A DNA stretch of 64,000 bases from Escherichia coli 042. Lineage in GTDB: Bacteria; Pseudomonadota; Gammaproteobacteria; Enterobacterales; Enterobacteriaceae. The notes below the pieces were generated by a model, which did no database searches, was not told where the DNA came from, and saw only the letters and a list, made by a program, of their open reading frames with translations. The stretch lies in NCBI RefSeq assembly GCF_000027125.1, contig NC_017626.1; one strand, given 5' to 3'. The translations under genes were made by a program, and so were the position numbers. Shown piece after piece: positions 5,558-37,401 of this stretch; the stretch's first letter is position 1, and each line of letters begins with the position of its first letter.

Positions 5558-5656
5558 GCCGGATGCGGCGCAAACGCCTTATCCGGCCTACAAAATCATG
5601 CTAATTCAATATATTGCAGAAATATCGTAGGCCTGATAAGCGTAGCGCATCAGGCA
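5558..5656. repeat. Two REP elements in opposite orientation (BIME-like) between convergent yfeS and cysM
   Basis: gccggatgcggcgcaaacgccttatccggcctaca and gtaggcctgataagcgtagcgcatcaggc match the REP family also seen at 6630, 26870-27352, 52003 and 56676. Confidence 0.7.
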
Positions 5657-19650: not shown

Positions 19651-20703
19651 TCACCCCCATTCCCGCATCCGCTGATGCAGCGTCAACGACGGCTTCTCGG
19701 CAAACAGCTGCTGGTAATCCGTGGCAAATTGCCCCAGATGCCAGAATCCCCACTGCATGGCGGCGTCTTTTACCGTTGTGCTTTGCGACCAAGGGCTTAT
19801 CAGTTCGCGGCGTACGGCGTTCAGGCGAATGCGTTTCAGCCACGCATTTGGGCCAATGCCTAAAATAGCGTGAAACGCGTTTTGTAGCGTGCGGCGGCTG
19901 ACATGCAGTTGATTACACAAGTCCAGCACCGTCACCGGTTCGGACATGTTTTCCAGCACATATTCACGGGCGCGGGAAAGCAACCGACGGTAACTCTGAT
20001 GACTGATGCTTTCCGCCGTCACCATTGGCTGCGCTTCTTCCAGCATCGCCCCCATCGCCATGAGCAAATTATCCCCCAGCACTTTACGCACAGCAGGCTG
20101 ATGAAGATTTTCCGGGTTCTCGCAAAATGTCGCCAGCGCCTGTTGGACAAAGCCCCACAGCGCGGCTTTATGCTGTTCTTTCACTTCCAGCGCCGACTGG
20201 CTACGCAGCATATGTAATACCCGATCCGGATTATGCAAAAAGTTAGCCTGACGGGTGATGACATCTTCAGAAAGCACTACGCCCAGGATCGTGTAATCGT
20301 CCGGCGTACTTAATTCAAACTCGGTTCCACCGGGGCGCGTCGCTATTTCTGCGCTTCCCAGACATTGCGAACCGATAAATCCCTGCTCACCGCGCGTCGC
20401 CGGAATGCCAAACCAGAACGAGTTCGGCCAGACCAGGCACGACTGACGCAGCGCCAGACCGGTGTATTCACGAAAAACCTGAATATCATCGAGTAGAATT
20501 TCCGTAAATTCACCATGAAACTTGCCCGGATGCAGCTGATCGTAAATCTGCTGCCAGGCGGTAATCGTTAAAGCATGTTCATAGACATCCGTTGTCTGTC
20601 GTTGATGAACATTATCCACTTCGACCTTCGGCGTGAGCTTCAGGTTTTCGGGTAAGGGTTCATGATAAAGATGGTGCAAATTGGCTGTACGGGTCTTTTT
20701 CAT
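19651..20703 (-). CDS. eutR: AraC-family transcriptional activator of the eut operon
   Basis: 350-aa ORF with a C-terminal AraC-type HTH; sits at the distal end of the eut cluster. Confidence 0.93.
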
Positions 20704-20748
20704 GATGTTAATGCCGGGTGTTGTAGGACACCCGGCACCTCCGACAGG

Positions 20749-21249
20749 TTAATGGGGCTTGAGACGATAACGACTACTGCGTTTACGTAACGTCCCGGCA
20801 GAAAAGAGCTGTTCGAGCGCATTTCTGGCTTTTTCGAGCGGCCAGCCAAAGTGGGCTGCCACTTCTCCTGCCGTCATTCCCTGACGTACTGATGTTAACA
20901 GCGCCAACAACTCGTCAGCAGATTCCGCGACGATAACTGGCGCGTCGGGTTCCTTTACGGGTTGCTTCGGCTGGCGGTTAAAGCCAGTAACCAGCCACTG
21001 GATGTCATCGTCTGGCCGACCGATCTCCTTGCGGCTGATGACACGCCCGGTACGCATCGCGGCAGCACAACCTGCGTCCAGCGCCGCACGACACGCCGCC
21101 AGATCGCCTTCCACCACCAGCGTTAGGCGACCAGGGTCAAGCACTTCGTGACTGAGCAGACGAACGTTAGCTGCTTTGAGCATGGCATCAGCTGCATCTA
21201 TCGCGGCGACCATGCCGTCCACTTCCAGCAATCCCAGTGCATTGATCAT
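20749..21249 (-). CDS. eutK: Ethanolamine microcompartment shell protein EutK
   Basis: BMC-domain N-terminus (MINALGLLEVDGMVAAIDAADAMLKAANV) with a C-terminal extension; start chosen at the MINALG ATG. Confidence 0.9.
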   Translation of the reverse strand: MINALGLLEVDGMVAAIDAADAMLKAANVRLLSHEVLDPGRLTLVVEGDLAACRAALDAGCAAAMRTGRVISRKEIGRPDDDIQWLVTGFNRQPKQPVKEPDAPVIVAESADELLALLTSVRQGMTAGEVAAHFGWPLEKARNALEQLFSAGTLRKRSSRYRLKPH

Positions 21250-21261
21250 CGGCAACCTCCG

Positions 21262-21921
21262 TTACGCACGCTGGATAGGATTACGCGCGATTTCCAGCAC
21301 TGCATCGGTAAAGGCGTTACAGGCTGCTTTACACGCTGCCTGGCTACCGGTTAAAAATGCTGCCGAGTAGTTGGTTTCAGACGGTGGCGGGACATAGGTC
21401 ACCAGCTGTACGTCGGCAGATTTCAGGGCTGCATCAATGCCATAGGTCGCTTCCAGCGGCGGTGCCACCAGATACGCCATCGGATCGCCAAGCGTGATCC
21501 CGGCGGTTGATGAGAGATAAGAACCGGTACGCGAAACTACATGTGCCAGGAAGGCTGTATTTTCTGCGTCATTAGCCCACTGGAAAGCAGCGCCATTTTC
21601 AATATGCGCAACCATCGCATCCAGACCAGCACGCACTTCCGCCGGGTTTGGCCCACCGAGCATAATCAGCACTTCACCGGCAGTCGGTGACGGTCCGTGT
21701 GCAGCGCCCGCATACAGCGAGCGGCCATACACCACTTCGACCATCGCCTGCTTGGTCGCTTCGTCAGCCGCAATGTAGGTGACGTCATCGGAATCAGCAG
21801 AAATCAGCCCGAGGCTACGAATATGCGGCGGCAATTTCAGTTCACGCGCAAATTCGGCGTTAACGGAGGCAATCACCCGCATGGCGGTGACCGACGGTCG
21901 AATCAAATCTAAAGCTGGCAT
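21262..21921 (-). CDS. eutL: Ethanolamine microcompartment shell protein EutL (tandem BMC domains)
   Basis: 219-aa ORF; position between eutC and eutK. Confidence 0.93.
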
Positions 21922-21930
21922 GATGCCTCC

Positions 21931-22818
21931 TTATCGGGTCATGTTGATGCCGGATGCTTTCTGCTCCAGCATACGTTTCGCCAAATCCACAATGACGGCT
22001 GCGGCTTCAACCGGCGGCGTGCCGCCCTGGTGAATGTTAGAAATACAGGTGCGATCGGCCTCAACGGTGGTCGCCATACGCGGCGAGTAAACGGCGTAGC
22101 AGGAGAGGCTTTCTGACTGCCCTAATCCCGGGCGTTCCCCCACCAGCAGGATCACTACTTTCGCGCCGAGGATCTCACCGATCTGATCTTCAATCTTCAC
22201 GCGACCATAACGAACAAAGAATGGCGTACCGACTTTCAGCCCGGCCTGTTTCAGGCCCGCCATCAGCGGCGGCAGGATCTCTTCGTAGTTCACGGTGATC
22301 GCATCAGTTGACAGGCCATCAGAAATAACGACCTGCACGTCCGGATTAGCAACACACTGTGCTTTCAGCGCTTCAACAGCTTCTGCACACAGGCGGCGGC
22401 CCATATCCGGACGAGTCAGGTAGAGATTTTTGTCGCTAATTTCAGAGCGGACTTCCAGCAAGCCCTGCGCTTTCACCCACTCTTCTGGCACTTCTTTCAG
22501 TACGGTATCTTTCGAACGAGAGTGATCGGCCAGGAAACGCAGCAACGCCTGGGTACGCGGACGCGGACCGGCACGACCGGTACAAACGCGGGCCACGGTG
22601 CTGCGACGCAGTTCTGTTAATACGTCTGCGCGATGCGGGTTTTCAACGCCAATCCACGCTTTTGCTTCCGCAGAGCCTAAATCCAGCGCGCAGCTTTCCG
22701 AGGTCACCGGTGCCGCACAGGTGGTGGTGGCGCACTTTGCTTCTGACGGCGCGGGGGCCGCTTGTCCCATTGACGCCATCACGCTGCGTACAATTTCTTC
22801 AATCTGTTTTTGATCCAT
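21931..22818 (-). CDS. eutC: Ethanolamine ammonia-lyase small (light) subunit
   Basis: 295-aa ORF immediately downstream of eutB. Confidence 0.95.
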
Positions 22819-22838
22819 GATGTGTTATCTCCGCGTCA

Positions 22839-24200
22839 TCAGAAGAACAGTGACGGATCGCCCGCCCGTTTGGTCAGGCGACCGTTTGCCATAATGCCCA
22901 TGCTTTCCAGCCAGCGTTCAAACTCCGGTGACGGGCGCAGGTTGAGTAACTGACGCACAGTGGCGGTATCGTGGAAGGCGGTGGTCTGGTAGTTGAGCAT
23001 GATGTCATCACCCAGCGGCATCCCCATGATGTAGTTACAGCCTGCGGTGGCGAGCAGGATCATCAGGTTTTCGTTGAGGTTCTGGTCAGCGTCAGCGTGG
23101 TTGGTGTAGCAGCAGTCACAGCCCATAGAGATGCCGCTCAGCTTACCCATAAAGTGATCTTCTAAGCCCGCACGGATAATCTGGCGGTCGTTGTAGAGAT
23201 ACTCCGGCCCAATAAAGCCGACCACGGTGTTGACGATAAACGGATCGTAATGACGCGCCAGCCCATAGTTACGCGCTTCCATCGTCACCTGGTCAGCGCC
23301 GAAGTTCGCGCCAGCGGACAGCGCAGAACCCTGCCCGGTTTCGAAGTAGAGGCAGTTTTCCCCGGCGATACGGTTGAACTCCGCGCCCACTGCGCGTGCT
23401 TCATCGAGCATCGCCAGCTCCACGCCAAATTCTTTCAGCCCTTTTTCGCTGCCGCAGATACTCTGGAAAATCAGCCCGCCTGGTGCGCCACGACGGATCG
23501 CTTCAATCTGGGTGGTGACGTGCGCCAGCACGCAGCCCTGGGTCGGAATGTTGAATTTGTCGATCACGCCGCAAATGGTGTCCAACACGCGGCTTAAGTT
23601 TTCCACGTCGTCAGTCACCGGGTTAACGCCGATCACCGCATCGCCCACCCCGAAGGAAAGCCCTTCGTAGATTTGCGCGGCGATACTTTGCACGTCGTCA
23701 CGGGTGTCGTTTGGCTGCAAGCGGGCGCTGAAGGTGCCCGGAATACCGATGGTGGTATTGGCCTTTTTGATCACCGGCATTTTCTTCGCGCCGTAGATCA
23801 GGTCCGCGTTGGAGCAAATCTTCGCTACCGCCGCGACCACTTCCGAGGTCAGCCCTTTGCGGGTAAAGGCAATGTCGTCCACGCTGGTTTCATCGCTCAG
23901 CACATACTCACGCAGTTCGCTGATGCTCCAGTTTTTAATCTGGTTGTAGGCCGTTTCGTTAACGTCGTCCTGAATCAGCCGCGTCACGCAGTCATCTTCA
24001 TAGGCAATCACCGGATTATTGCGGATGTCCGCTACGGTCATTTCCGACAACACCTGCTTTGCCGCCACGCGCTCTTGTGAGCTTGCCGCTGCAACGCCCG
24101 CCAGCACATCCCCCGAACGCAGTTCGTTGGCTTTAGCCAGCACCTCTTTTACATCCTTAAACTGATATACATTGCCGAACAATGTGGTCTTTAGTTTCAT
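22839..24200 (-). CDS. eutB: Ethanolamine ammonia-lyase large (heavy) subunit
   Basis: 453-aa ORF MKLKTTLFGNVYQFKDVKEVLAKANELRSGD...; only 11 bp from the eutA stop. Confidence 0.96.
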   Translation of the reverse strand: MKLKTTLFGNVYQFKDVKEVLAKANELRSGDVLAGVAAASSQERVAAKQVLSEMTVADIRNNPVIAYEDDCVTRLIQDDVNETAYNQIKNWSISELREYVLSDETSVDDIAFTRKGLTSEVVAAVAKICSNADLIYGAKKMPVIKKANTTIGIPGTFSARLQPNDTRDDVQSIAAQIYEGLSFGVGDAVIGVNPVTDDVENLSRVLDTICGVIDKFNIPTQGCVLAHVTTQIEAIRRGAPGGLIFQSICGSEKGLKEFGVELAMLDEARAVGAEFNRIAGENCLYFETGQGSALSAGANFGADQVTMEARNYGLARHYDPFIVNTVVGFIGPEYLYNDRQIIRAGLEDHFMGKLSGISMGCDCCYTNHADADQNLNENLMILLATAGCNYIMGMPLGDDIMLNYQTTAFHDTATVRQLLNLRPSPEFERWLESMGIMANGRLTKRAGDPSLFF

Positions 24201-24211
24201 AAGTCGTTCCC

Positions 24212-25615
24212 TCAGGAAGGAAATGCGAGTGATTTCACCGTCACCGGCACAACCGATCCGCCAAAAAGAGGCGTACCAATGTCGATATAGTCCCCCGCGC
24301 GGACAATCACTTCGTCAATGACTGCCAACGGGAGTTGCTGTAGCTGTGGGCGCAACAACATGCCCAGAGCTTTACCAAAGTCCTGCCCGGCCACCACCAG
24401 CAGGGGATGCGGATTCGGAAAACGCGCGACGAAATCGACCAGCGCGTTGATGACCGTCAGTACCGCGGCGTAACGCACAGGCAGCGAGGCGGGAAGCGCC
24501 AGCACGTACGCGTCAGTTTTGGGGCAAAGATCCAGCTGAATCAGCGCCTGTTGCCAGGCACTCACCAGATCCGTTTCATCAATTGGGATCGCCACCGGCA
24601 AATTGCGCAGCGGCAGTTGTACGCCCTCCAGCCAGATTGTGCTGCCAGAGAGCGAAAGGGTATGTGCACCCGCGCCAATCACCGTGGCACGTACGGTTTG
24701 CGCTGGAAACTGCACGTTCATCTCACGCAGGCGCGGATGGTCATGCAGCGCCGTTGCCAGAAGCGGGCCGATATCGGCAAAACAGAACGGATCGGCGGGC
24801 TGGTGGCGATAACATTCGCCCACGCCGCCAGAAAGCGTAATGATTTCGGGCGTAACACCTGCGGGCAGCAAACCGGTTTGCATCAATGCCTGCGCGAGCG
24901 GCGAGAGCGTTCCGTCGATCACTTCGACAATCAGCTCTGCCATCCGGCGGGTAACCTGCACCAGCTGCGCGCCGGTCAGCGAACGGGCGTCAGTGCCAGC
25001 ACCGAAGCACTCATCCACAATCATCTGCCCCGGTTTATGAGCGTAAACCACGCGCCCCTGGCTGTCGGTTTCCAGCAGGCGACCGCCGACGTTGAGGCAG
25101 GCGGTGCCGCTGATTTTTCCGGCATCGAACAGGGCGTAGTTCGCGGTGCCACCGCCGATATCGATATTCAGTACCCGACACAACCGTTGTTCAGAAAGGG
25201 TTTGCGCCCCGGCACCGTGACCGGCGATCACGGATTCGAGATGCGGCCCGGCGCTGGCGACGACAAAATCGCCCAGCGATTGGGAGAGCGTCATCACCGC
25301 CGGGCGAGCATTGCGGGTTTTCGCGCTTTCACCGGTGATGATGATGGCACCAGAATCAACGCTTTCCGGCGCAATGCCCGCAGCCTGGTATTGCTCGAGG
25401 ATTAAGGTTTTCAGTTCCGCTTCTTTTAAACCACCCTGTTTATCGACAGGGGTAAAGAACACCGGGCTTTGCCAGCTAATTTCGCGTTTGATGAATTCGT
25501 AGCGCGGCACCTGCGACACCGCCGCACGGTTAACCAGCTCCAGGTGGGAGAAGATCACCTGGGTGGTGGTGGTGCCGATATCGATACCGACGCTCAGTAG
25601 CTGGCGAGTGTTCAC
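24212..25615 (-). CDS. eutA: Ethanolamine ammonia-lyase reactivating factor
   Basis: 467-aa ORF with ASKHA/actin-like ATPase features; directly upstream of eutB. Confidence 0.95.
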   Translation of the reverse strand: MNTRQLLSVGIDIGTTTTQVIFSHLELVNRAAVSQVPRYEFIKREISWQSPVFFTPVDKQGGLKEAELKTLILEQYQAAGIAPESVDSGAIIITGESAKTRNARPAVMTLSQSLGDFVVASAGPHLESVIAGHGAGAQTLSEQRLCRVLNIDIGGGTANYALFDAGKISGTACLNVGGRLLETDSQGRVVYAHKPGQMIVDECFGAGTDARSLTGAQLVQVTRRMAELIVEVIDGTLSPLAQALMQTGLLPAGVTPEIITLSGGVGECYRHQPADPFCFADIGPLLATALHDHPRLREMNVQFPAQTVRATVIGAGAHTLSLSGSTIWLEGVQLPLRNLPVAIPIDETDLVSAWQQALIQLDLCPKTDAYVLALPASLPVRYAAVLTVINALVDFVARFPNPHPLLVVAGQDFGKALGMLLRPQLQQLPLAVIDEVIVRAGDYIDIGTPLFGGSVVPVTVKSLAFPS

Positions 25616-26838
25616 GATTGTGCCTCCGCTTCGGTTTTAGCCGCGGTCGCGTCTTCTTTTGGCACCAGCATCATCGCCACGCCAATCGCCGTTACGCCGC
25701 CGATCAATTTGCCGACAATCATCGGGAAAATCATGGCGTTCATGTTGGCAGCGGCGAAGCCTAAGTGGTCGCCCAGGGCGAAAGCAGCGGAAACGGCGAA
25801 GGCGCAGTTGATGACTTTGCCGCGGGTATCCATCTGCTTCATCATGCCGAACATCGGGATGTTGTTAGCAAGCGTTGCCACCATGCCAGCTGCCGCGATG
25901 TTGTTCATATTCAGCACTTTACCGACGCTCATCAGCGGTTTTTCAAACCAGCGGGTCAGCAGCAGCACCATCGGGTACGCCCCTAACAGAACGCAGGAGA
26001 TAGAACCGATAACTTCAATGGCGCGCATCACTTCACCGGGTTTGTCGCCAGGGGCCATAAAGATAGGATCCAGACCGGGGATCAGTTCCCAGCCAAGGAG
26101 GAATTTCACTACCGCGGCAGCAAGACCGAGGGTGATCAATGCAACGAGGAATTTGGCGAAGATCTGGAAGCCGTTGATCATTTTTTCCGGGATGAATTTC
26201 AGCCCCAGCGCCACCAGCACCGCAACGATAAGTACCGGGATCATGTTCATCAGGATCAGCGCAAAGGTGAATTCCACCGGCTGACCGTTGATCTGCACAC
26301 CGGAGTACATAGCAACCAGACCACCAGCAATACAGCCAATCGGAATGGTCACAATGCCCGCCAGCACGCCGAGCGCCAGATAACGACGGTCAGAAGGTTC
26401 GATAATGCCGAGCGCCACCGGAATGGAAAACACAATCGTTGGCCCCATCATCGACCCGAGAATTAACCCAGAGTATAGCCACGCTGCTACGTCGCCGCCC
26501 GCCAGCTCTTTGGCGAGGAAGAACCCGCCCATATCGCACGCCAGCAGTGTTCCGGCGAACATCGATGGGTTTGCGCCGAGCATTTCGTAAACCGGGATAA
26601 TCACCGGTCCGAGTACGTGGGCCAGAACAGGTGCCAGCGCGGTCATACCAACCATCGCCAGGCCCAGTGCGCCCATCGCCATAAAGCCTTCTTCAAACTG
26701 CCCGCCGGATCCTTCGATACTTTTACCGAACTTACCGAGGAAACGAGCAGAACCGCCGAACTGCGACAGGATCCTGTCTACGGCAGCTATCAGCATAAAG
26801 AACATCATGATGTACATGATGATTTCGTTAATTCCCAT
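25612..26838 (-). CDS. eutH: Ethanolamine permease/facilitator
   Basis: 408-aa polytopic membrane ORF; 4-bp overlap with the eutA start. Confidence 0.95.
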   Translation of the reverse strand: MGINEIIMYIMMFFMLIAAVDRILSQFGGSARFLGKFGKSIEGSGGQFEEGFMAMGALGLAMVGMTALAPVLAHVLGPVIIPVYEMLGANPSMFAGTLLACDMGGFFLAKELAGGDVAAWLYSGLILGSMMGPTIVFSIPVALGIIEPSDRRYLALGVLAGIVTIPIGCIAGGLVAMYSGVQINGQPVEFTFALILMNMIPVLIVAVLVALGLKFIPEKMINGFQIFAKFLVALITLGLAAAVVKFLLGWELIPGLDPIFMAPGDKPGEVMRAIEVIGSISCVLLGAYPMVLLLTRWFEKPLMSVGKVLNMNNIAAAGMVATLANNIPMFGMMKQMDTRGKVINCAFAVSAAFALGDHLGFAAANMNAMIFPMIVGKLIGGVTAIGVAMMLVPKEDATAAKTEAEAQS

Positions 26839-26868
26839 CGCCTTTACTCCCTGTTAGTTGTTATTTAT

Positions 26869-27352
<484 letters not shown>

Positions 27353-27353
27353 T

Positions 27354-28541
27354 TTATTGTGCCGCTGCGTACAGGCCGACAATCTGCTCCAGGCTGGCGG
27401 TACGCGGGTTGCTGCGCAGACAAATATCTTCCAGCGCGGCCTGCGCCCATGCGCCGTAATGTCCGGTGGTTGCGCCCACGTCTGCCAGCCGCTTGTTGAT
27501 CCCGACTTCCGCAATCAGCTCACTTACCGCGTTAATAGCGTCACGATCGTCGGATTTTTTAGTTCGCAGCGCCCGACCAATCTGACTAAAGCGTTCACGA
27601 CAAACCATCCGGTTAAATTCCATCACCGTTGGCAGCAACATGGCGTTCGCCAGACCGTGCGGAATATGCAGCGCCGCCCCCGTTTGATGCGCCATCGCGT
27701 GGCATATCCCAAGCCCCGCACTGGAAAACGCCATTCCCGCCATGCATGAAGCCAGCAACATACTCTCGCGCGCGGCAAGGTCGTGACCGTAGCCCACCGC
27801 TTTCGGCAGTGATTTACCAATCATCGCGATTGCGCCAATCGCCAGGCTGTCGGTAAACGGTGTAGCGTTCAGCGCGCTGTACGCTTCAATGGCATGGGTT
27901 AACGCATCAATGCCAGTCATCGCCGTGACATGCGACGGCACGCCTTCGGTCAGCGCGGCGTCGAGGATCGCCACATCCGGCATCAACGAGGCATGTGCTA
28001 ACACCTGCTTGCGCCCGCTCACCGCGTCGATAATCACCGTTACGTTGGTGGTTTCAGAACCGGTTCCGGCAGTAGTTGGAATGGCAATCAGCGGCAGGCG
28101 CGGTTGCAGAACGCTGGTTTCTGACATTTCTGCCAGCGTGCTATCCGGGTTCGTCACCAGTAGTGCCACCGCTTTCGCCGCATCCAGCACCGAGCCGCCG
28201 CCAAACGCAATCACCCCATCGCACCCCGATTCACGCAACTGCGCCACGGCTGCACACACGTCGGTGATGCACGGTTCGCCCACCGGACATGACCAGAGCG
28301 TCATGGCGATACCTTTAACGGCCAGGCTACGCGTCAGCCCGGCGGTCATCCCTGCCTGATGCAAAAAGCTGTCTGCCATCACGAACAGATGTTTCAGCCC
28401 ACGCGTTTGCGCTTGCTGTCCGCAACTGCTCACCGCGCCCGGACCGCAAAGCGTCACCGGTGGAACGCTAAATGTTTTTACCCGTTGCAGATTCAGGGTA
28501 TCGAACGCCTGAAAGAGCGCGGTCTGCAATTCATTTTGCAT
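27354..28541 (-). CDS. eutG: Iron-containing alcohol dehydrogenase of the eut pathway
   Basis: 395-aa ORF with Fe-ADH family features. Confidence 0.95.
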   Translation of the reverse strand: MQNELQTALFQAFDTLNLQRVKTFSVPPVTLCGPGAVSSCGQQAQTRGLKHLFVMADSFLHQAGMTAGLTRSLAVKGIAMTLWSCPVGEPCITDVCAAVAQLRESGCDGVIAFGGGSVLDAAKAVALLVTNPDSTLAEMSETSVLQPRLPLIAIPTTAGTGSETTNVTVIIDAVSGRKQVLAHASLMPDVAILDAALTEGVPSHVTAMTGIDALTHAIEAYSALNATPFTDSLAIGAIAMIGKSLPKAVGYGHDLAARESMLLASCMAGMAFSSAGLGICHAMAHQTGAALHIPHGLANAMLLPTVMEFNRMVCRERFSQIGRALRTKKSDDRDAINAVSELIAEVGINKRLADVGATTGHYGAWAQAALEDICLRSNPRTASLEQIVGLYAAAQ

Positions 28542-29367
28542 AGATCCCCTCCGCTTTCTCTCGCCCGCTACTGGCGATCGCCAGCGGGGTCATAAACAAA
28601 CTGTGCTGCGGTAGATGCACCTGTAACGCCGGGAATTGTTTGCAAAACAGTTCCGCTACGCCCGGTTGCATACAGGAGCCGCCCGCCAGCCATAAATCAG
28701 TAATGCCCTGCCCTTCAATATGCCGGGCGACAATGTCCGCCATTTTTTCGTACACCGGTTTCACCGCAGGCCAAATCTCTTCACCGTGACCGCGCTTGTA
28801 CTGCTCCGCCTCTTCCAGCGAAATACGGCGATTTCCGGCGAGAGTCAGAGAGATGTGATGTCCGCCAGTGGCTTCATCCGCCGAGTACGTCACCTTGCCC
28901 TTTTTCACGATGGCAATGCCGGTGGTGCCGCCGCCGATATCCACTACGCCTGCGTTGTCCAGTTGCAGCAGATCCGCGACTGCGGTTGGCTCATCCAGCA
29001 CATGGCTCACTTCCAGTCCAGCAGACTCCAGCACGTTGATGGAAATACGCGGGTCCGTACCTGGAGGAAATGAGGTCGCCGCATGGCTAAAACGGCGACC
29101 GAATTGCTGCTCAAGAGTGTCGAGATGGCGACGAACAATGGTGACCGCACCGAAGAAATCCCAGACGATGCCGTCGCGGACCACATCGGCCCAGTCGAGA
29201 CATACCGCCACCGGCTGACCGTCGCAGTCGACAACCATCGACACCACATCGCAGGTGCCCAGATCCACCCCCAGCCACAGCGGAGATTCCGTTGCGGCAG
29301 GTGTCTGGTTACACAGCGTTGCCGCCGTTTGCAGACGCGGGGTGAGCCATTGTTCGTCGTGCGCCAT
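28531..29367 (-). CDS. eutJ: Ethanolamine utilisation chaperone-like protein (Hsp70/actin fold)
   Basis: 278-aa ORF; overlaps the eutG start by 11 bp. Confidence 0.93.
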   Translation of the reverse strand: MAHDEQWLTPRLQTAATLCNQTPAATESPLWLGVDLGTCDVVSMVVDCDGQPVAVCLDWADVVRDGIVWDFFGAVTIVRRHLDTLEQQFGRRFSHAATSFPPGTDPRISINVLESAGLEVSHVLDEPTAVADLLQLDNAGVVDIGGGTTGIAIVKKGKVTYSADEATGGHHISLTLAGNRRISLEEAEQYKRGHGEEIWPAVKPVYEKMADIVARHIEGQGITDLWLAGGSCMQPGVAELFCKQFPALQVHLPQHSLFMTPLAIASSGREKAEGIYAK

Positions 29368-29377
29368 CGGTTACTCC

Positions 29378-30781
29378 TTAAACAATGCGAAACGCATCAA
29401 CTAATACACAGCGACGCAGACGGACAAACGTACGCGCGCTGGTTACCCCTTCACCGGTTGGCGTGGTGATGGTCATGGTGGTCCAGCCTTCCCCGCCCAG
29501 CCCCAGCCCGGCAATGCACGGTCCGTTCTTAACGAAAATGCTGGTATCAATGGCGTTCGCCATCTGGTTCATGTTCTCGATGTTGCGCGAGTGCATTGCC
29601 GCCGTGTGATGGCAACCGCCTTCCAGTTTCACCGCCAGCGCAATGGCATCCGCCACGTTGGCGACGCGCACGACGGGCAGCACCGGCATCATCAGTTCGG
29701 TCACGGCAAACGGATGTTCTGCAGTGGTTTCCACAAACAGCAAACGCGTTTCTTGCGGCACGTTCAGGCCGATTGCCGCCGCGATTTTCGCCGCATCGCG
29801 ACCTACCCAGTCACGGCTGACGGTGCCTTTTCCGCGCTCGTCGATATTTTTCAGCAACACCGGTTGCAGCTGCTGCGCCTGTTCTGCGGTCAGTTTCACC
29901 GCGTGCTGGCCTTCCATCAGACGCATCAGTTCATCGGCTACGCTATCAACAACAATCAGTACCTTTTCGTCGGCACAAATGATGTTGTTATCGAAAGAAG
30001 CGCCTTTGACGATGGACTGAGCGGCACGGGCGAGGTCGGCGGTTTCATCCACCACTACCGGCGGGTTGCCAGCGCCTGCGGCAATCAGACGTTTATTGGT
30101 GTGTTTACGCGCCGCTTCTACTACCGCTTCGCCGCCCGTCACCACCAAAAGGCCGATGCCCGGAAACTTGAATAAGCGTTGCGCGGTTTCGATATCCGGA
30201 TTTGCCACAGTAACCAGTAAGTTTTCCGGCCCGCCTGCGGCAACAATCGCCTGGTTGAGCAGCGTGATCGCCCGCTGGGAGACTTTTTTCGCCGCCGGAT
30301 GCGGGGCAAAAATGACGCTGTTGCCCGCGGCAATCAGGCTGATGGCGTTGTTAATTACGGTTGCCGCCGGGTTAGTGGAAGGCGTCACCGAAGCCACCAC
30401 GCCCCAGGGCGCGTTTTCAATTAAAGTCAGGCCGTTGTCGCCGGTCAGCACCTGTGGTGAGAGGCACTCAACGCCTGGTGTGCCGCACGCCTGAGCGACG
30501 TTTTTGGCAAATTTATCTTCGACGCGGCCCATGCCGGTTTCACTGACGGCAAGTTCCGCTAAATCTCTGGCGTGTTTTTCGCCTGCCTCACGAATGGCAG
30601 CAATGGCTAACTGGCGCATTGCCACGCTTTTTAACCCTTGCTGGGCAATTTTGGCTGCCGCAACGGCGTCATCCAGGGACGCGAAAACGCCCATCTCATG
30701 AACGGCGGCGGGCGGCGTATCACTGCTTTGCATTTTCAGCAGTACCGCTTTCACCACCTGTTCAATATCCTGTTGATTCAT
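29378..30781 (-). CDS. eutE: CoA-acylating acetaldehyde dehydrogenase
   Basis: 467-aa aldehyde-dehydrogenase-family ORF. Confidence 0.95.
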   Translation of the reverse strand: MNQQDIEQVVKAVLLKMQSSDTPPAAVHEMGVFASLDDAVAAAKIAQQGLKSVAMRQLAIAAIREAGEKHARDLAELAVSETGMGRVEDKFAKNVAQACGTPGVECLSPQVLTGDNGLTLIENAPWGVVASVTPSTNPAATVINNAISLIAAGNSVIFAPHPAAKKVSQRAITLLNQAIVAAGGPENLLVTVANPDIETAQRLFKFPGIGLLVVTGGEAVVEAARKHTNKRLIAAGAGNPPVVVDETADLARAAQSIVKGASFDNNIICADEKVLIVVDSVADELMRLMEGQHAVKLTAEQAQQLQPVLLKNIDERGKGTVSRDWVGRDAAKIAAAIGLNVPQETRLLFVETTAEHPFAVTELMMPVLPVVRVANVADAIALAVKLEGGCHHTAAMHSRNIENMNQMANAIDTSIFVKNGPCIAGLGLGGEGWTTMTITTPTGEGVTSARTFVRLRRCVLVDAFRIV

Positions 30782-30792
30782 GATGTTCTGCC

Positions 30793-31080
30793 TTATTTGT
30801 GGAAAATTACCTGACCGCCAGACACCACCTCATCGACGATGCCAATCACGCACAGATCGACCGGTGACGTTTCGCTTTTATGCGCCTGGCGGGCGGAACT
30901 GCCACTCACCAGCAACACCCACTCCCCGGTTCCCGCGCCAATATTGTCGATTGCGACGGCGCATTGCCCGTCAGGATTACCTTGTGGATCAATCATTTCC
31001 ACCATCAGCAATTTGTCATGCGCCAGTCCGTGATGGCGTACGGTACAAACAATTTGTCCAGTGACGACTGCCAGTTTCAT
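30793..31080 (-). CDS. eutN: Microcompartment vertex (pentamer) protein EutN
   Basis: 95-aa ORF MKLAVVTGQIVCTVRHHGL...; EutN/CcmL family. Confidence 0.93.
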   Translation of the reverse strand: MKLAVVTGQIVCTVRHHGLAHDKLLMVEMIDPQGNPDGQCAVAIDNIGAGTGEWVLLVSGSSARQAHKSETSPVDLCVIGIVDEVVSGGQVIFHK

Positions 31081-31186
31081 ACCCGCCTCCGTGGCGTATT
31101 TCAGGTAAAAGCTCCCCCTACCCTCCGCGGAAGGTAAACTGAAAAATGAGAGAGCGTGACGCCCGAATCGACGTCACACAGGGTGA

Positions 31187-31480
31187 TTACAGGTTGCTGC
31201 TATCGCCTTTCAGGCCGATCGGGAAGACTTCTTCCAGGTCGCCGTGCGGACGCGGGATAACGTGTACAGATACCAGCTCGCCGATACGCTGTGCCGCTGC
31301 AGCACCTGCGTCGGTCGCGGCTTTACAGGCTGCAACATCACCACGAACCATGGCAGTACACAGGCCGCCGCCAATCTGCTTAACACCAACCAGCTTGACG
31401 CGCGCAGCTTTCACCATCGCGTCAGAAGCCTCAATCAGTGCAACCAGGCCCCGGGTTTCGATCATTCCTAATGCTTCCAT
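31187..31480 (-). CDS. eutM: Major microcompartment shell protein EutM (BMC domain)
   Basis: Track ORF carries a 14-codon extension; the BMC sequence [28 protein letters not shown]... is 97 aa with RBS. Confidence 0.93.
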
Positions 31481-31518
31481 TGTGCTTTCCTCTTTATCAG
31501 GGTCCAGAACGGGACCGT

Positions 31519-32535
31519 TCATTCAACCAGTGTTTGTAAACTGCTTTCGCGGTTCACTTCTGTCTGACGCGGCACAGCTGCCACCAGCGCCAGTTCGATA
31601 ATTTCCTGCACGCTACAACCACGAGAGAGATCGTGCATCGGCGCGGCAAGTCCTTGTATCAATGGCCCGACGGCACGATATCCGCCGAGTCGTTGTGCGA
31701 TTTTGTAGCCAATATTTCCGGCTTCCAGCGACGGAAAAACCATCACATTGGCCTTGCCTTGTAGCGGGCTGGCAGGCGCTTTTTGCGCCGCCACTTCCGG
31801 CACGAAGGCGGCGTCAAACTGCAACTCGCCATCGACTACCAACTGCGGCGCGCGCTCACGGACGATTTCTGTCGCCTGCTGGACATTGGCAACGCAGGGG
31901 TGACGGGCGCTGCCGTTACTGGAAAACGACAACATCGCCACGCGCGGCTCTTCTCCGGTGATGGCGCGCCAGGTTTCGGCGCTGGCAAGCGCGATATCCG
32001 CCAACTGCGCCGCCGTCGGCTGTGGCACTACGCTGCAATCGGCAAAGCCCAATGCGGGGCCACTGTACTGTGGCAGCATCAGGAAAATGGAGGAGAGCGT
32101 TTTACAGCCTGGCTGTAAGCCAATAATGCGTAATCCGGCACGCAGCACATTCGCCGTGGAAGAGAGATTGCCCGCGATACAGACATCCGCTGTCCCGGCG
32201 CTGACCATTGCGGCAGCGAACATCAGCGGATCGGTGAGTTTTTCCAGCGCATCCGGCGGCGTTTTTTCGCCCGCACGGGCCAGCCAGCGATGAGCAAATT
32301 CTTCCCGCATTGCGAGGTTGCCATGCGGATCTATCACCTGTAGCCCGTCCATCGCTACGCCATGACTGAGCGCAAACTGACGAAGTTCAAACGGATTGGC
32401 GACCAGAATGGGCGTTGCCAGACCTTGTTGATGTAAATATTGCGCAGCTTTCAGCACACGTTGGTCTAACGCATCCGGAAATACCACTCTGGCGGGCGCT
32501 CGCAACGCCAGTTCACGACAACGTTCAATAATCAT
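31519..32535 (-). CDS. eutD: Phosphotransacetylase of the eut pathway
   Basis: 338-aa PTA-family ORF. Confidence 0.95.
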
Positions 32536-33329
32536 TGCGTTTCTCCCAGTCGTTGTTGGATCTGCTTCACCGTTAGCGGTTGTTTCGCTACGCTCAGGAT
32601 CATCATCACGTAAACCGTGCTGGAAAGGCGATTTAGCGCCTGCAAGATGTCCGGGCGTAATACTTCAAAACTGCGGGTGATAAAGACCTGCGCCGCTACG
32701 GTTTCACGCACTTTGGTGCGTAGCAGATTGAGCAACGCCGCATCGCGTCCGTGGCTGGCTTCCGGCACCAGATGATCGTGACCAAGATAGCGCAGCGGCT
32801 GGTGAGAAAGCCGATGCAGATCTTCGTCAGAAAGCCCGACAATCGCCTGGCAGGCCAGCGGTTCCCCCAGCGCATCAGCGCGCATAATGTTGCCAAGACG
32901 CGAGCGGATGTCCGCAAGCCATGGCTGCCACGGTTCTGCCAGTTCAATTTGCAGCCACACTGCCAGCGCAATGGTGCTGTCGAGAACAGCGCGAAAACCC
33001 AGGCGCGGATCGCTTTTGGCGACCATTTTTTCCGCCGACAGGTGAGTCAGCGTATCCGGCTTTTTTGCTACCGGCTGGCGGCACAGTTCGCAGCACGCCT
33101 GCGGATGTTCATCGCTACTGGTCAGCCCATGAACGGGCTGCGGCTGCTGCTGTTCATCGTCAACAAACAGGCGGCCCTGCTCGTCAATAAACTTGATGCG
33201 CAGATGGCGGCTTTCCAGCAACTCCCGGGCAGAGGGCGTCAGGCGACTGTCCGCAGGGAGATGGATCTCTGCGCCTTCGCTGAGCGTATGGTTCGCTCTT
33301 AGCCATGCTTCGGTGATGAAATCTTTCAT
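32532..33329 (-). CDS. eutT: EutT-type corrinoid (cobalamin) adenosyltransferase
   Basis: 265-aa ORF with a cysteine-rich HPQACCELC motif; 4-bp overlaps with both neighbours. Confidence 0.92.
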
Positions 33330-34027
33330 AGGGATTGCCAGTTAGCCGGCCAGGCGACATACAGGAATTTCACGCTGGATGTCGTACCAAATTCGATGCT
33401 GGAGCCTTTCGGGATAAACATCACGTCGCCTGCTTTGGCGATCATGGTTTCGCCTTCGTGGCGAACATGCAGCTCCCCTTCCAGCACCATGTCGATTTCG
33501 TCGTAGTTCAGGGTCCACGGGAAGAATGCGTTCTCCCACTGCATAAAACCGGCGGCCATGCTGCTGCCGTCGTCTCCGGTCACAAGATCAGTCAAGCCCA
33601 CGCAATGCGGCTCTGCGCCGTCGAAACGACCAAACTTGACGCTGCTGCCATCAATAACTTTGATGCCGCCTTTGCCGGTCACCGATTTGAAACTCGGCTG
33701 CATTGCACCCTGCTCCAGCGACAGTTTTTCCTTCATCACTTTTTCCATCAGCTGCGCGACCAGGCTTTCGGTAAACTGGCCTTCCGGTAGCTGGGCGATG
33801 ATGGTTTCGCGGATGCGCTGACTTTCGGTTTTATCGGCTGGCACGCTGGCGGGAACGGACGTCGTTACCGCAGTCGATTCATCACATTCGGTGATGGTAA
33901 AACCCAGTAGATCTGCCACTTCACGGGCTTCCGGGGTAATAATGCTGGCGCGCAGAACCACGGACATTGCCTGTTCGCCGCGCGCGTGTGCTTCACGAAT
34001 ATCATTCGCTGTGATGAGTTTTTTCAC
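33326..34027 (-). CDS. eutQ: Cupin-fold ethanolamine utilisation protein EutQ
   Basis: 233-aa ORF MKKLITANDIREAHARGEQAMSV.... Confidence 0.92.
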   Translation of the reverse strand: MKKLITANDIREAHARGEQAMSVVLRASIITPEAREVADLLGFTITECDESTAVTTSVPASVPADKTESQRIRETIIAQLPEGQFTESLVAQLMEKVMKEKLSLEQGAMQPSFKSVTGKGGIKVIDGSSVKFGRFDGAEPHCVGLTDLVTGDDGSSMAAGFMQWENAFFPWTLNYDEIDMVLEGELHVRHEGETMIAKAGDVMFIPKGSSIEFGTTSSVKFLYVAWPANWQSL

Positions 34028-34481
34028 CTGCTTCCTCCTGTTTGGTGAGAGATGCCAGATAATCCACCAGTTGCTGCACGCTTTGCGGGTCGTGGCTGTT
34101 TAGCTCGAAAATCGGCTCTTCGAAGCCCGTCTCAAGCAATAACTTTCGCGTTGCGGCGACGTCAGCATCTGGCATGTCCGTTTTACTGATGACGGCGATT
34201 TGCCGTTTGCTGACGCCAATATCCAGCAACCCGGCAGGCAATCGGCTTTCCGGGTCATTCGCGCCGTGGACATAGATCAGCATGTCCACATCCTGTAGCG
34301 TGGTAATTAAGGCGTGATACCAGCGGGGGTGGCTAAAATATTCACCCGGCGTATCAATATCACCCTTATCATTAAATTCTACGGCCTGCGTTTTTCTGGC
34401 GAGGGTATAATCTCCCTGCAACGCATTAAATAACGTTGTTTTTCCTGCCCCGACGGTACCCACAAACGCAATTCGTTTCAT
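34002..34481 (-). CDS. eutP: P-loop NTPase-like protein EutP
   Basis: 159-aa ORF with Walker A GTVGAGKTT; overlaps the eutQ start by 26 bp. Confidence 0.92.
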   Translation of the reverse strand: MKRIAFVGTVGAGKTTLFNALQGDYTLARKTQAVEFNDKGDIDTPGEYFSHPRWYHALITTLQDVDMLIYVHGANDPESRLPAGLLDIGVSKRQIAVISKTDMPDADVAATRKLLLETGFEEPIFELNSHDPQSVQQLVDYLASLTKQEEAGEKTHHSE

Positions 34482-34493
34482 GAATGCCTCGTA

Positions 34494-34829
34494 TTAACTT
34501 TTGGTCATTTCACAAAGCGTATAATTTAATAAACGCCCTAAACCGCTGACGGTTTGTGATAACGCTTCTTCTACTGCGCCCACCGAGCCATAAATCACCA
34601 GCGCGCCGCTAAAACGGTCGAGAAAACCGATATGCACATCGGCGGCTTTTAGTGCTAAATCACCGGCGATCATCGCCGTTTCGCCGGGAGTTAGCGTCAT
34701 AATGCCGATTGCGCCCGCATCAGGAACGCCGATTTTCTTCGCCAGTTCCTCGCCGGGATGCGCGATGAGATGCGCCAGTGTGACCTGTTTACCGGGCACA
34801 AATTCCTGAATGATGCGTTCTTTATCCAT
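34494..34829 (-). CDS. eutS: Microcompartment shell protein EutS (permuted BMC domain)
   Basis: Track ORF is extended; product from [25 protein letters not shown] is 111 aa; first gene of the operon. Confidence 0.9.
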
Positions 34830-35060
34830 GAGTCGCCGCCTGTGAAAAACTTTCGTGTATCGTGACAATTTTTCGTCAGAGTAAATAACAAAATTCGGCA
34901 AGCGCGTTTAAAAGGTGAGGTAGATCACTAAGAATGGAGAGATATTTACTGTTATGAATAAACTTTCATATGCGAGGCATGAATATAAATAAAATAATAT
35001 CGAGATATTTTATATACTGCTTTTTTTATTATTCGCAAACTCAGTAATAAGCTTTGCTAA
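34830..35060 (-). promoter_or_regulatory. AT-rich eut operon promoter/operator region upstream of eutS
   Basis: About 230 bp of strongly AT-rich sequence directly upstream of the first eut gene; the main eut promoter is expected here. No individual site assigned. Confidence 0.4.
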
Positions 35061-35076
35061 TATATTTCAGGAAAAC

Positions 35077-35104
35077 CGCTTACCCTGAATATTCAGGGTA
35101 AGCG
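35077..35104 (-). terminator. Rho-independent terminator downstream of maeB
   Basis: Palindrome cgcttaccctgaatattcagggtaagcg followed on the minus strand by a T-rich run, about 20 bp after the maeB stop. Confidence 0.55.
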
Positions 35105-35121
35105 TGAGAGTTAAGAATGAA

Positions 35122-37401
35122 TTACAGCGGTTGGGTTTGTGCTTCAACCACAGCCAGCGCCACCATGTTGACGATACGACGTACCGATGCGATCGGCGTT
35201 AACACGTGAACCGGTTTCGCCACGCCCATCAGCACCGGACCGACAGTCACACCTTCCGAGCTGGAAACGCGCAGTAAGTTGTAACTAATGCGGGCAGCTT
35301 CCATGTTCGGCATCACCAGAATATTAGCGGAACCTTTCAAAGGGCTGTCCGGCATACGGTCGCTGCGAATCGCTTCCACCAGCGCTGCATCGCCGTGCAT
35401 TTCACCATCAATCATCAGTTCTGGTGCACGTTCCCTGACCAGTTCCAGCGCCTGACGCATTTTGCTCGACGACGGGCAGTCAGAAGAACCAAAGTTGGAG
35501 TGCGACAACAGAGCCACGCGCGGTTCAATACCGAAACGACGAACAGTTTCTGCCGCCATCAAGGTGATCTCCGCCAGCTCTTCTGCGTCTGGTTCGTCAT
35601 TGACGTAGGTATCGGCAATAAAGGTGTTACCACTCGGCAGCAGCAGCGCGTTCATGGCACCTGCGGTGTGAACGCCATCGCGATAACCAAAGACATTTTT
35701 CACCACGCTAAAATGTTCATGATAATCGCCCACCGTACCGCAGATCATTGCATCGGCTTCGCCACGCTGAACCATGATCGCGCCAATCACTGTCGGGTTA
35801 CTGATCAATGCACGCTGCGCCTGTTCCTGAGTGACACCACGACGCTTCATGATCTGGAAGTATTCGGTCCAGTACTCTTTAAAGCGCGGATCGGATTCGT
35901 TATTGACGATCTCAAAATCAACACCCGCTTTGATCTGCAAGCCCAGTTTCTGAATGCGCATTTCGATCACATTCGGACGACCGATAAGGATCGGTTTCGC
36001 CAGCCCCAGTGTTACCAGTTCCTGAGTGGCATGCAGAACGCGCGCCTCTTCCCCTTCCGGCAGAACGACGCGCTTCGGCGCTTTGCGAGCCTGGGAGAAA
36101 ATCGGCTTCATAAACAGGTTGGTTTTGTAAACGAACTCCGTCAGCTTGTCGATGTAGACGTCGAAATCAGCAATCGGACGCGTCGCCACGCCCGACTCCA
36201 TCGCGGCTTTAGCGACCGCAGGAGCGATCTTAACGATCAAGCGCGGATCAAACGGTTTTGGAATGATGTATTCCGGACCAAAGCTCAGATCCTGATCGCC
36301 ATAAGCTGAAGCCACCACTTCACTCTGTTCCGCATGGGCCAATTCTGCAATCGCGCGTACCGCCGCCAGTTTCATCTCTTCGTTGATGGCGGTTGCGCCA
36401 ACGTCCAGCGCGCCACGGAAGATGAACGGGAAGCAAAGGACGTTGTTCACCTGGTTCGGGTAGTCGGAACGGCCGGTACAGATGATGGCATCCGGACGCA
36501 CTTCTTTCGCCAGCGGCGGCAGAATTTCCGGTTCCGGGTTCGCCAGCGCCAGGATCATTGGCGCTCGAGCCATTTTCTTCACCATTTCCTGGGTCAGCAC
36601 TTTCGGGCCGGAACATCCCAGGAAAATATCCGCGCCTTCAATCACATCATCGAGGGTACGTTTGCCGTCATCCACCACCGCATATGCGGCTTTGGTTTCC
36701 GCCATGTTTGGTTCACGGCCCTGATAGATAACGCCTTTTGAATCGCAAACCACGATGTTATGTTTTTGCAGACCCAGCGCTACCAGCAGGTTCATACAGG
36801 CGATTGCTGCGGCACCCGCGCCGGAAACCACCATCCGCACGTCAGAGATGTTTTTCTCCACCACGCGCAAACCGTTGAGGATGGCGGCAGTGCTGATGAT
36901 TGCCGTGCCGTGCTGATCGTCGTGGAATACCGGAATATTCATCCGCTCGCGCAGTTTCTGTTCAATATAGAAACATTCTGGCGCTTTAATGTCTTCGAGG
37001 TTGATGCCGCCGAAGGTCGGTTCAAGCGCAGCGACGACTTCAATAAATTTGTCCGGGTCGAGTTCATCAACTTCAATGTCAAATACATCAATCCCGGCGA
37101 ATTTCTTAAACAGAACGCCCTTGCCTTCCATCACCGGTTTGCCCGCCAGCGCGCCAATGTTGCCTAACCCCAGCACCGCCGTACCGTTAGAGATCACCGC
37201 CACCAGGTTACCGCGCGCGGTATATTTGTAGGCTTTTAACGGGTCTTTTTCGATTTCAAGACAAGGTGCGGCAACGCCTGGTGAGTAGGCCAGCGCCAGA
37301 TCGCGCTGCGTTGCCAGAGGCTTGGTTGGAGAAACCTGGATTTTCCCTGGAACTGGAAATTCATGGAAATCAAGTGCACTTTGTTTTAACTGGTCATCCA
37401 T
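35122..37401 (-). CDS. maeB: NADP-dependent malic enzyme (malic enzyme domain fused to a PTA-like domain)
   Basis: 759-aa [32 protein letters not shown].... Confidence 0.96.

Follow-up and report, generated by a model that had tools for sequence, protein, structure and literature searches.

Described eut operons and coupled gene pairs

The eut operons closest to the one analysed here are those of Escherichia coli K-12 and Salmonella LT2, which have the same gene order and gene lengths, and K-12 also has the same five gene overlaps. The K-12 junctions concerned (-26, -4, -4, -11 and -4 nt) are already contained in the supplementary file of PMC10666635. A 23-nt version of the eutP/eutQ overlap was noted in a 2025 study of Salmonella, in which eutQ codons 1-9 overlap eutP and the deletions were designed round that arrangement (PMC12487888). 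The overlaps of this operon are, in other words, already known and already annotated architecture.

According to the same study, Salmonella can dispense with EutP, a cytosolic protein, but requires EutQ, which is encapsulated and links the shell to its cargo. The shell is bound through EutQ residues 9-41 (helices H1/H2), on which shell-cargo association depends, and their removal abolishes shell binding in vivo (PMC12487888). Quantification by iBAQ in E. coli K-12 on ethanolamine and B12 identified EutQ as the most abundant Eut protein; when it is set to 100, EutP amounts to 7±1, EutD to 10±3 and EutG to 7±1 (PMC11334477), ratios that also reflect protein stability and that come from K-12 W3110, a strain other than 042.

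A further point of reference is provided by the E. coli gene pairs that are translationally coupled, such as trpB-trpA, hyfH-hyfI and menD-menH. Stop/start overlaps of -4 nt promote termination-reinitiation and are enriched among genes for subunits of heteromeric complexes (PMC10666635).

Layout of the eut operon

The window, i.e. the whole 64,000-nt stretch of DNA that was analysed, comes from E. coli 042 (contig NC_017626.1). The operon eutSPQTDMNEJGHABCLKR lies on its minus strand, at approximately 19.6-34.8 kb, and its flanks carry maeB, talA and tktB. The eut genes are transcribed as one mRNA, with the main promoter upstream of eutS. Positions 33200-34600 are 100% identical to strain Ecol_316 and 95-99% identical to nearly all of the 5,426 complete E. 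coli genomes, the eutPQ allele found here being a minority one (at least 99% identity over 1.4 kb in 25 of 5413 records). The start codon, stop codon and reading frame of each of the 17 eut genes were checked and placed in window coordinates, and the resulting distances between consecutive genes are as follows (+, spacer; -, overlap):

eutS/eutP, +12 nt
eutP/eutQ, -26 nt
eutQ/eutT, -4 nt
eutT/eutD, -4 nt
eutD/eutM, +38 nt
eutM/eutN, +106 nt
eutN/eutE, +11 nt
eutE/eutJ, +10 nt
eutJ/eutG, -11 nt
eutG/eutH, +515 nt
eutH/eutA, -4 nt
eutA/eutB, +11 nt
eutB/eutC, +20 nt
eutC/eutL, +9 nt
eutL/eutK, +12 nt
eutK/eutR, +45 nt

All five overlaps reported by the first-pass annotation were found at the sizes claimed, both in the sequence and in the PGAP annotation of the strain that is 100% identical over 33200-34600. 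The overlaps other than eutP/eutQ, together with the eutT gene bounded by two of them, are:

32532..33329, minus strand, eutT coding sequence, 265 aa (267 aa in the reference strain)
33326..33329, minus strand, eutQ/eutT ATGA junction, the eutT start lying on the eutQ stop; the region upstream of eutT has no Shine-Dalgarno (SD) sequence, -1.7 kcal/mol
32532..32535, minus strand, eutT/eutD ATGA junction, the eutD start lying on the eutT stop; eutD SD GGGAGA, -7.3 kcal/mol
28531..28541, minus strand, eutJ/eutG overlap of 11 nt, ATGCAAAATGA; eutG SD GGAGG, -10.0 kcal/mol
25612..25615, minus strand, eutH/eutA GTGA junction, the eutA GTG start lying on the eutH stop; eutA SD GGAGG, -9.5 kcal/mol

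The 4-bp junctions had all been described as ATGA, which holds for eutQ/eutT and eutT/eutD and fails for eutH/eutA, where the junction is GTGA because eutA begins with GTG. The same source called the overlaps extensive, and this is overstated: they occur at 5 of the 16 junctions, and three of the five are overlaps of -4 nt, the commonest single distance between same-direction gene pairs of K-12, of which 24% are separated by -8 to +6 nt (PMC10666635). Within the latter range fall 3 of the 16 eut junctions, all of them at -4. The number of overlaps is close to the E. coli norm, therefore the operon shows no excess of them. What stands out is a spacing of +9 to +12 nt, found at 6 of the 16 eut junctions versus 7% genome-wide, a baseline that includes non-operon pairs.

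In some details the operon differs from those described. Its eutT is two codons shorter than that of the reference strain, and the eutG-eutH spacer is 515 bp long, compared with 216 bp in K-12. The CPZ-55 prophage, which in K-12 presumably sits between eutA and eutB, is absent here and the two genes are 11 nt apart, whereas in K-12 CPZ-55 genes adjoin eutA.

The start codon of eutQ

The features that bear on the eutP/eutQ junction are:

34002..34481, minus strand, eutP coding sequence, 159 aa, EutP/PduV-family small GTPase-like protein, annotated as an acetate kinase
33326..34027, minus strand, eutQ coding sequence, 233 aa, with a GTG start at 34027-34025; N-terminal shell/cargo-binding region and C-terminal cupin domain
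34002..34027, minus strand, eutP/eutQ overlap of 26 nt, made of eutQ codons 1-8 and two bases of codon 9 (VKKLITAN-D)
34034..34039, minus strand, eutQ SD sequence AGGAGG, 6 nt before the GTG (-12 to -7), inside eutP
34019..34024, minus strand, A6 run in eutQ codons 2-3 (Lys-Lys), directly after the start
33965..33967, minus strand, in-frame ATG (Met21), the first start candidate past the eutP stop, rejected as a start

EutP matches the equivalog model NF012011 over residues 1-159 (350 bits versus a cut-off of 258), TIGR02528 over residues 2-144 (195 bits versus a cut-off of 138) and Pfam PF10662 over residues 1-143 (E 1.1e-29). EutQ aligns over residues 1-233 of 233 to the NCBIfam equivalog NF012001 (495.6 bits versus a cut-off of 193), and its residues 85-232 match Pfam PF06249 (E 1.6e-69). 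On the eutP side the overlap comprises the last eight codons and the stop (..EKTHHSE*), and relative to eutP the reading frame of eutQ is +1. Among complete E. coli genomes, 5324 of 5403 matching records carry the 53-nt eutP/eutQ junction without any change.

Three in-frame start candidates are available for eutQ: GTG 34027 (codon 1), ATG 33967 (codon 21) and GTG 33961 (codon 23). Upstream of GTG 34027 the frame remains open for 24 codons, none of which is ATG, GTG or TTG, therefore a longer form of EutQ is impossible. A shorter form would begin at Met21 or Val23, past the eutP stop, in which case the overlap would be an artefact of annotation. Such a start might be favoured by GTG being a weaker start codon than ATG, by the presence of an in-frame ATG 20 codons downstream, and by the absence of the N-terminus from the solved structures, which span only residues 97-232. 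We nevertheless regard it as scarcely credible, on account of the signals preceding the two sites and of the conservation of the protein.

The AGGAGG inside eutP pairs with the anti-SD sequence at -10.3 kcal/mol, which is among the strongest values in the operon; upstream of the Met21 ATG no SD sequence could be read. AGGAGG or AGGAGA precedes eutQ in 28 of 28 GTG-start enterobacterial loci analysed, and the other intact loci contain shorter SD-like motifs of the GAGG/AGGA type, with the single exception of Xenophilus L052, where only GGAG is present. When eutQ loci were scanned in one genome per species, which provided 53 usable loci from Escherichia to Pseudomonas and Xenophilus, the EutQ tblastn match began at residue 1 in every one of them (53/53). 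The sequence MKKLITAND has been kept at the N-terminus in 53 genomes and also in EutQ relatives with as little as 24% identity. In a set of 32 diverse representatives extending to the same level of identity, M1, K2 and L4 each reach a conservation of at least 90% (consensus MKKLITA), and no part of the N-terminal region is better conserved than residues 1-20. On the other hand, Met21 is not conserved, and most of the 32 homologues have I, L or V at position 21. In lineages with other junction types codon 1 of eutQ is ATG, and the homologous N-terminal module of EutT likewise begins at residue 1 of that protein. In EutQ, residues 1-99 are targeted to Eut microcompartments.

A start at Met21 would also cost EutQ half of the shell-binding region 9-41, the deletion of which leads to loss of shell binding in Salmonella in vivo (PMC12487888). 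A EutQ N-terminal peptide was sought in the supplementary text of PMC11334477, and none was found in the part of that text accessible to us.

The SD sequence, the conserved N-terminus and the unconserved Met21 together indicate, on comparative grounds, that the annotated GTG at 34027 is the right start of eutQ and, within the EutQ family, would be the ancestral first codon. On the same evidence, the first-pass annotation was correct in placing this start 26 nt inside eutP.

Origin of the eutP/eutQ overlap

The arrangement of the eutP/eutQ junction differs between lineages, and so does the length of EutP, with 148 aa in the shortest and 161 aa in the longest of the intact loci:

Morganella, Pluralibacter and Serratia: eutP/eutQ +12, +11 or +4 nt; eutQ start ATG; EutP 148-151 aa
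Buttiauxella, Pseudomonas and Xenophilus: eutP/eutQ -4 nt (ATGA); eutQ start ATG; EutP 153 aa (161 aa in Xenophilus)
Yokenella and Entomohabitans: eutP/eutQ -26 nt; eutQ start ATG; EutP 157-160 aa
Salmonella, Citrobacter, Klebsiella and Pseudocitrobacter: eutP/eutQ -23 nt; eutQ start GTG; EutP 159 aa
Escherichia and C. sedlakii: eutP/eutQ -26 nt; eutQ start GTG; EutP 159-160 aa

The overlap of 26 nt exists because the eutP stop codon shifts between lineages against a fixed eutQ N-terminus. Whether the overlap measures 23 or 26 nt depends on a synonymous change in eutQ codon 7: with GCT the eutP frame acquires a TAA, with GCG it does not. In the Escherichia lineage eutP would thus be read through the ribosome binding site and start of eutQ as far as an out-of-frame stop. 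As eutP reads past the eutQ start region, the last ~15 residues of EutP would be a by-product of the sequence from which eutQ is initiated. Residues 145-159 form a tail beyond the EutP family models, which end at residues 143-144, hence these last 15 residues correspond to the SD sequence, spacer, start and first codons of eutQ in another frame. Read in the eutP frame, the SD sequence encodes part of Q-E-E, and the 'QEE' or 'KEE' of the EutP tail is translated AGGAGG.

In 26 distinct enterobacterial sequences the mean column entropy of the overlap at eutQ codon positions 1, 2 and 3 was 0.00, 0.03 and 0.65, compared with 0.13, 0.13 and 0.74 in eutQ downstream of it; this comparison covers the columns from +3 onward only, as a 3-nt indel upstream distinguishes Escherichia from other genera. 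The variation within the overlap is almost entirely confined to the third positions of eutQ codons, where it is similar to that at synonymous sites deeper in the gene. These third positions are first positions in eutP, at which the residues of the EutP tail change freely (H/Y/N, K/E, S/R), and the length of the tail varies too. Purifying selection was therefore detected in the eutQ frame only, with none of eutP's own.

The eutP/eutQ junction resembles the long 3'-extension overlaps that form after the loss or shift of a stop codon, in that the eutP stop has likewise moved against the fixed start of eutQ, and in that the residues gained by EutP are determined by the eutQ frame and are without constraint of their own. 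Unlike in dual-frame overlaps, there are not two constrained frames, and the overprinted EutP tail shows no sign of function. Judged from these patterns of substitution, the overlap appears to be a passive 3' extension of eutP rather than a dual-coding device.

Initiation at eutQ and the amounts of Eut proteins

The published iBAQ values correspond to EutQ:EutP and EutQ:EutD ratios of ~14:1 and ~10:1, respectively (PMC11334477). Reinitiating ribosomes could not exceed the number of those that finish eutP. We infer that eutQ would be translated mainly by ribosomes binding de novo at the strong AGGAGG inside eutP, and independent initiation of this kind would let EutQ exceed EutP more than tenfold. 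Some backward reinitiation at eutQ by ribosomes leaving eutP may take place. Reinitiation in E. coli is local and drops steeply with distance, a dependence established for starts downstream of a stop codon and not for one lying 23 nt upstream of it (PMC10666635).

An initiation score composed of SD pairing, the start codon and the cost of opening positions -18 to +12 was -2.8 for eutQ and +1.1 for eutP. For the 12 quantified Eut proteins this score, which is a crude one, correlated with iBAQ abundance (Spearman -0.71, p 0.01, n 12), which suggests that their amounts are determined chiefly by independent initiation. It seems that the ratios of Eut proteins are set mostly by the initiation region of each gene and not by the overlaps. 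Two further possibilities were considered and rejected. One was an internal promoter responsible for the excess of EutQ over EutP; no promoter-like site was found in 33200-35200. The other was RNA structure hiding the eutQ start; the 120-nt fold round it has a z-score of 0.04, which does not set it apart from shuffled sequences.

The long overlap might alternatively be seen as regulatory in itself, with eutP ribosomes occluding or unmasking the eutQ start, or with a +1 frameshift producing an EutP-EutQ fusion. The SD sequence and start of eutQ lie wholly within eutP, the eutQ frame is open over the 24 codons mentioned above, and EutP-EutQ fusion ORFs of 381-396 aa are present in public protein sets, all of which would suit such a role. 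The openness of the eutQ frame is, however, not conserved, extending over 4 to 34 codons among enterics, and no stable structure is available for unmasking. The public fusion ORFs stem from frameshifts at differing positions of eutP, which fits mutation or sequencing error. A variant of the A6 run shorter by one base (A5), which would fuse eutP to eutQ, was found in 0 of 5426 complete genomes. A programmed frameshift or fusion at the A6 run was rejected on these two grounds. As the same genes are, in addition, kept in lineages with spacers or -4 junctions, we consider a regulatory overlap highly improbable.

Another idea is that the embedded eutQ ribosome binding site acts as a translational valve, helping to set the EutP:EutQ ratio of ~1:14 in the Escherichia/Salmonella/Klebsiella lineage. 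AGGAGG and the A-rich start would slow or displace ribosomes finishing eutP, and eutP ribosomes would in turn briefly block initiation at eutQ. We hold this to be very doubtful. A valve is not required, because lineages with spacers or -4 junctions keep both eutP and eutQ.

The 4-nt junctions and the question of stoichiometry

The -4 junctions of eutQ/eutT, eutT/eutD and eutH/eutA lie within the range of -8 to approximately +6 nt between stop and start that is used as a criterion of coupling, while eutP/eutQ (-26) and eutJ/eutG (-11) lie outside it. The three former pairs share their -4 junction with trpB-trpA, hyfH-hyfI and menD-menH (PMC10666635). In addition, eutT has no SD sequence of its own, which fits dependence on upstream ribosomes. 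With an initiation score of +5.4 and no SD sequence, eutT has no autonomous initiation site by that score, and because of the missing SD sequence eutQ to eutT is the best candidate for coupling in the operon. In contrast to the described pairs, the eut products are not known to belong together in one complex, EutQ differs tenfold from EutD in abundance, and coupling in eut is a prediction.

Escherichia, Salmonella and Klebsiella share the -4 overlap of eutQ and eutT, and spacers of +4 to +12 nt separate the two genes in the Citrobacter freundii group, Buttiauxella, Morganella and Pseudomonas, with 156 nt in one Citrobacter locus. The eutT/eutD junction in other genera is -4, -11 or -1. It is plausible that termination-reinitiation occurs only at the 4-nt junctions and above all from eutQ to eutT.

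The first-pass annotation had gone further and proposed that the overlaps, eutP/eutQ included, couple the translation of neighbouring genes so that the microcompartment components are made in fixed proportions. The coupling part of this proposal is reasonable for the -4 junctions, most of all for eutQ to eutT; fixed stoichiometry is not supported, and we judge the proposal as a whole unlikely. In its favour are the general behaviour of -4 overlaps referred to above (PMC10666635), the position of eutT on an ATGA junction without an SD sequence, and the near invariance of the eutP/eutQ junction within E. coli. However, none of the shell genes eutS, M, N, L and K overlaps a neighbour, their spacers being 9-106 nt long, and none of the five overlapping pairs (eutP/Q, eutQ/T, eutT/D, eutJ/G, eutH/A) is known to encode partners in one complex. 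EutP and EutQ, in particular, with their different locations in Salmonella and the dispensability of EutP (PMC12487888), are not partners in a fixed-ratio complex. Junction types differ among genera although the proteins are conserved, and overlaps are no more numerous here than is normal for the genome. The published values of EutQ 100, EutP 7 and EutD 10 do not present the combination of similar or fixed amounts with joint assembly that fixing of stoichiometry would entail. With overlapping neighbours differing more than tenfold, the overlaps do not equalise amounts.

We suggest, with a probability of about 0.85, that all these observations have one joint explanation, namely that this is an ordinary annotated operon in which the start of eutQ is ancestral, the stop of eutP has shifted, eutQ is initiated mainly independently, and coupling is likely only at the -4 junctions.

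Implications

The overlaps of the eut operon matter little beyond housekeeping, yet some practical consequences follow. As the start of eutQ is right, constructs, deletions and models of the Eut microcompartment based on a EutQ of 233 aa (229 aa in Salmonella) are sound. Deletions of eutP must spare its last ~40 nt, as otherwise the ribosome binding site of eutQ is lost. Caution is also advised in reading gene overlap alone as a guide to stoichiometry, since overlapping eut neighbours differ more than tenfold in abundance. The eut gene likeliest to depend on coupling is eutT and not a shell component, and a coupled eutT would suit an enzyme that is needed in small amounts.

Junction spacing and Shine-Dalgarno sites

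Spacers of 9-12 nt occur at 6 of the 16 junctions of the whole eut operon (window 20703-34829), a length reported for only 7% of same-direction gene pairs in K-12, a baseline that includes non-operon pairs (PMC10666635). In the genes that follow these spacers, the Shine-Dalgarno (SD) sequence lies at the stop codon of the preceding gene or spans it, as in the TAAGGAG preceding eutJ and eutL. Among the eut genes, a recognisable SD sequence is absent only from eutR and eutT.

Variation of the eutS-eutP-eutQ-eutT region

The eutS-eutP-eutQ-eutT allele of E. coli 042 is a minority type, since only 25 of the 5413 matching records share at least 99% identity with window 33200-34600, most records being about 97.6% identical. 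EutQ is 229 aa long in many E. coli, compared with 233 aa, and from near-full-length alignments we infer that this difference would fall in the linker joining the N-terminal region to the cupin domain.

Fusion ORFs that join EutP (34002-34481 in the window) to EutQ and are 381-396 aa long also occur in public protein collections (e.g. the proteins P0004, P0005, P0013, P0112 and P0121), with one cluster comprising 180 members. They arise from frameshifts at differing sites in the 3' part of eutP, which enter the eutQ frame, and are probably mutations or assembly errors.

A further difference concerns eutT:
about 32700-32710, minus strand, two-codon gap in eutT (after codon 208)

Two codons (Glu-Thr) are missing here relative to the 267-position NCBIfam model and to Ecol_316, an E. 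coli strain identical to the window over 33200-34600. EutT is thus 265 aa long in E. coli 042 and 267 aa in Ecol_316, the two proteins being otherwise identical.

Repeats and RNA matches

26839-27353, eutG-eutH spacer (515 bp) with REP/BIME-type tandem repeats
26869-27352, REP/BIME-type tandem array within this spacer
5592-5634, plus strand, ES036 (CssrF) sRNA match (Rfam)

The array consists of 4.8 tandem copies (97% identity) of a 100-bp palindromic REP/BIME-type unit, three of which exceed the Rfam gathering score for naRNA4. The spacer is 515 bp long in E. coli 042, whereas it measures 315 bp in Ecol_316 (two units fewer) and 216 bp in K-12, and the repeat copy number is therefore variable in the middle of the operon. 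Outside the operon, the ES036 match scored 41.1 bits, just over the gathering score of 37.6.

Homologous N-termini of EutT and EutQ

33180-33329, minus strand, EutT residues 1-50
33878-34027, minus strand, EutQ residues 1-50

These two segments are homologous (BLASTP: 33% identity, E 7e-5; profile-profile comparison: probability 95%, E 3.4e-8) and share the pattern MKxxIT...(I/L)TPxAR(E/D). No Pfam model covers this 50-residue region, and no mention of the similarity was found in the eut literature surveyed. EutQ residues 6-91 also gave a match (E 5e-9) to the N-terminal part of a EutA variant model from NCBIfam. Helices H1 and H2 of EutQ, located within its N-terminal 50 residues, have been reported to bind the shell (PMC12487888). 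The N-terminal homology suggests that recruitment of EutT to the shell may follow the mechanism used by EutQ.
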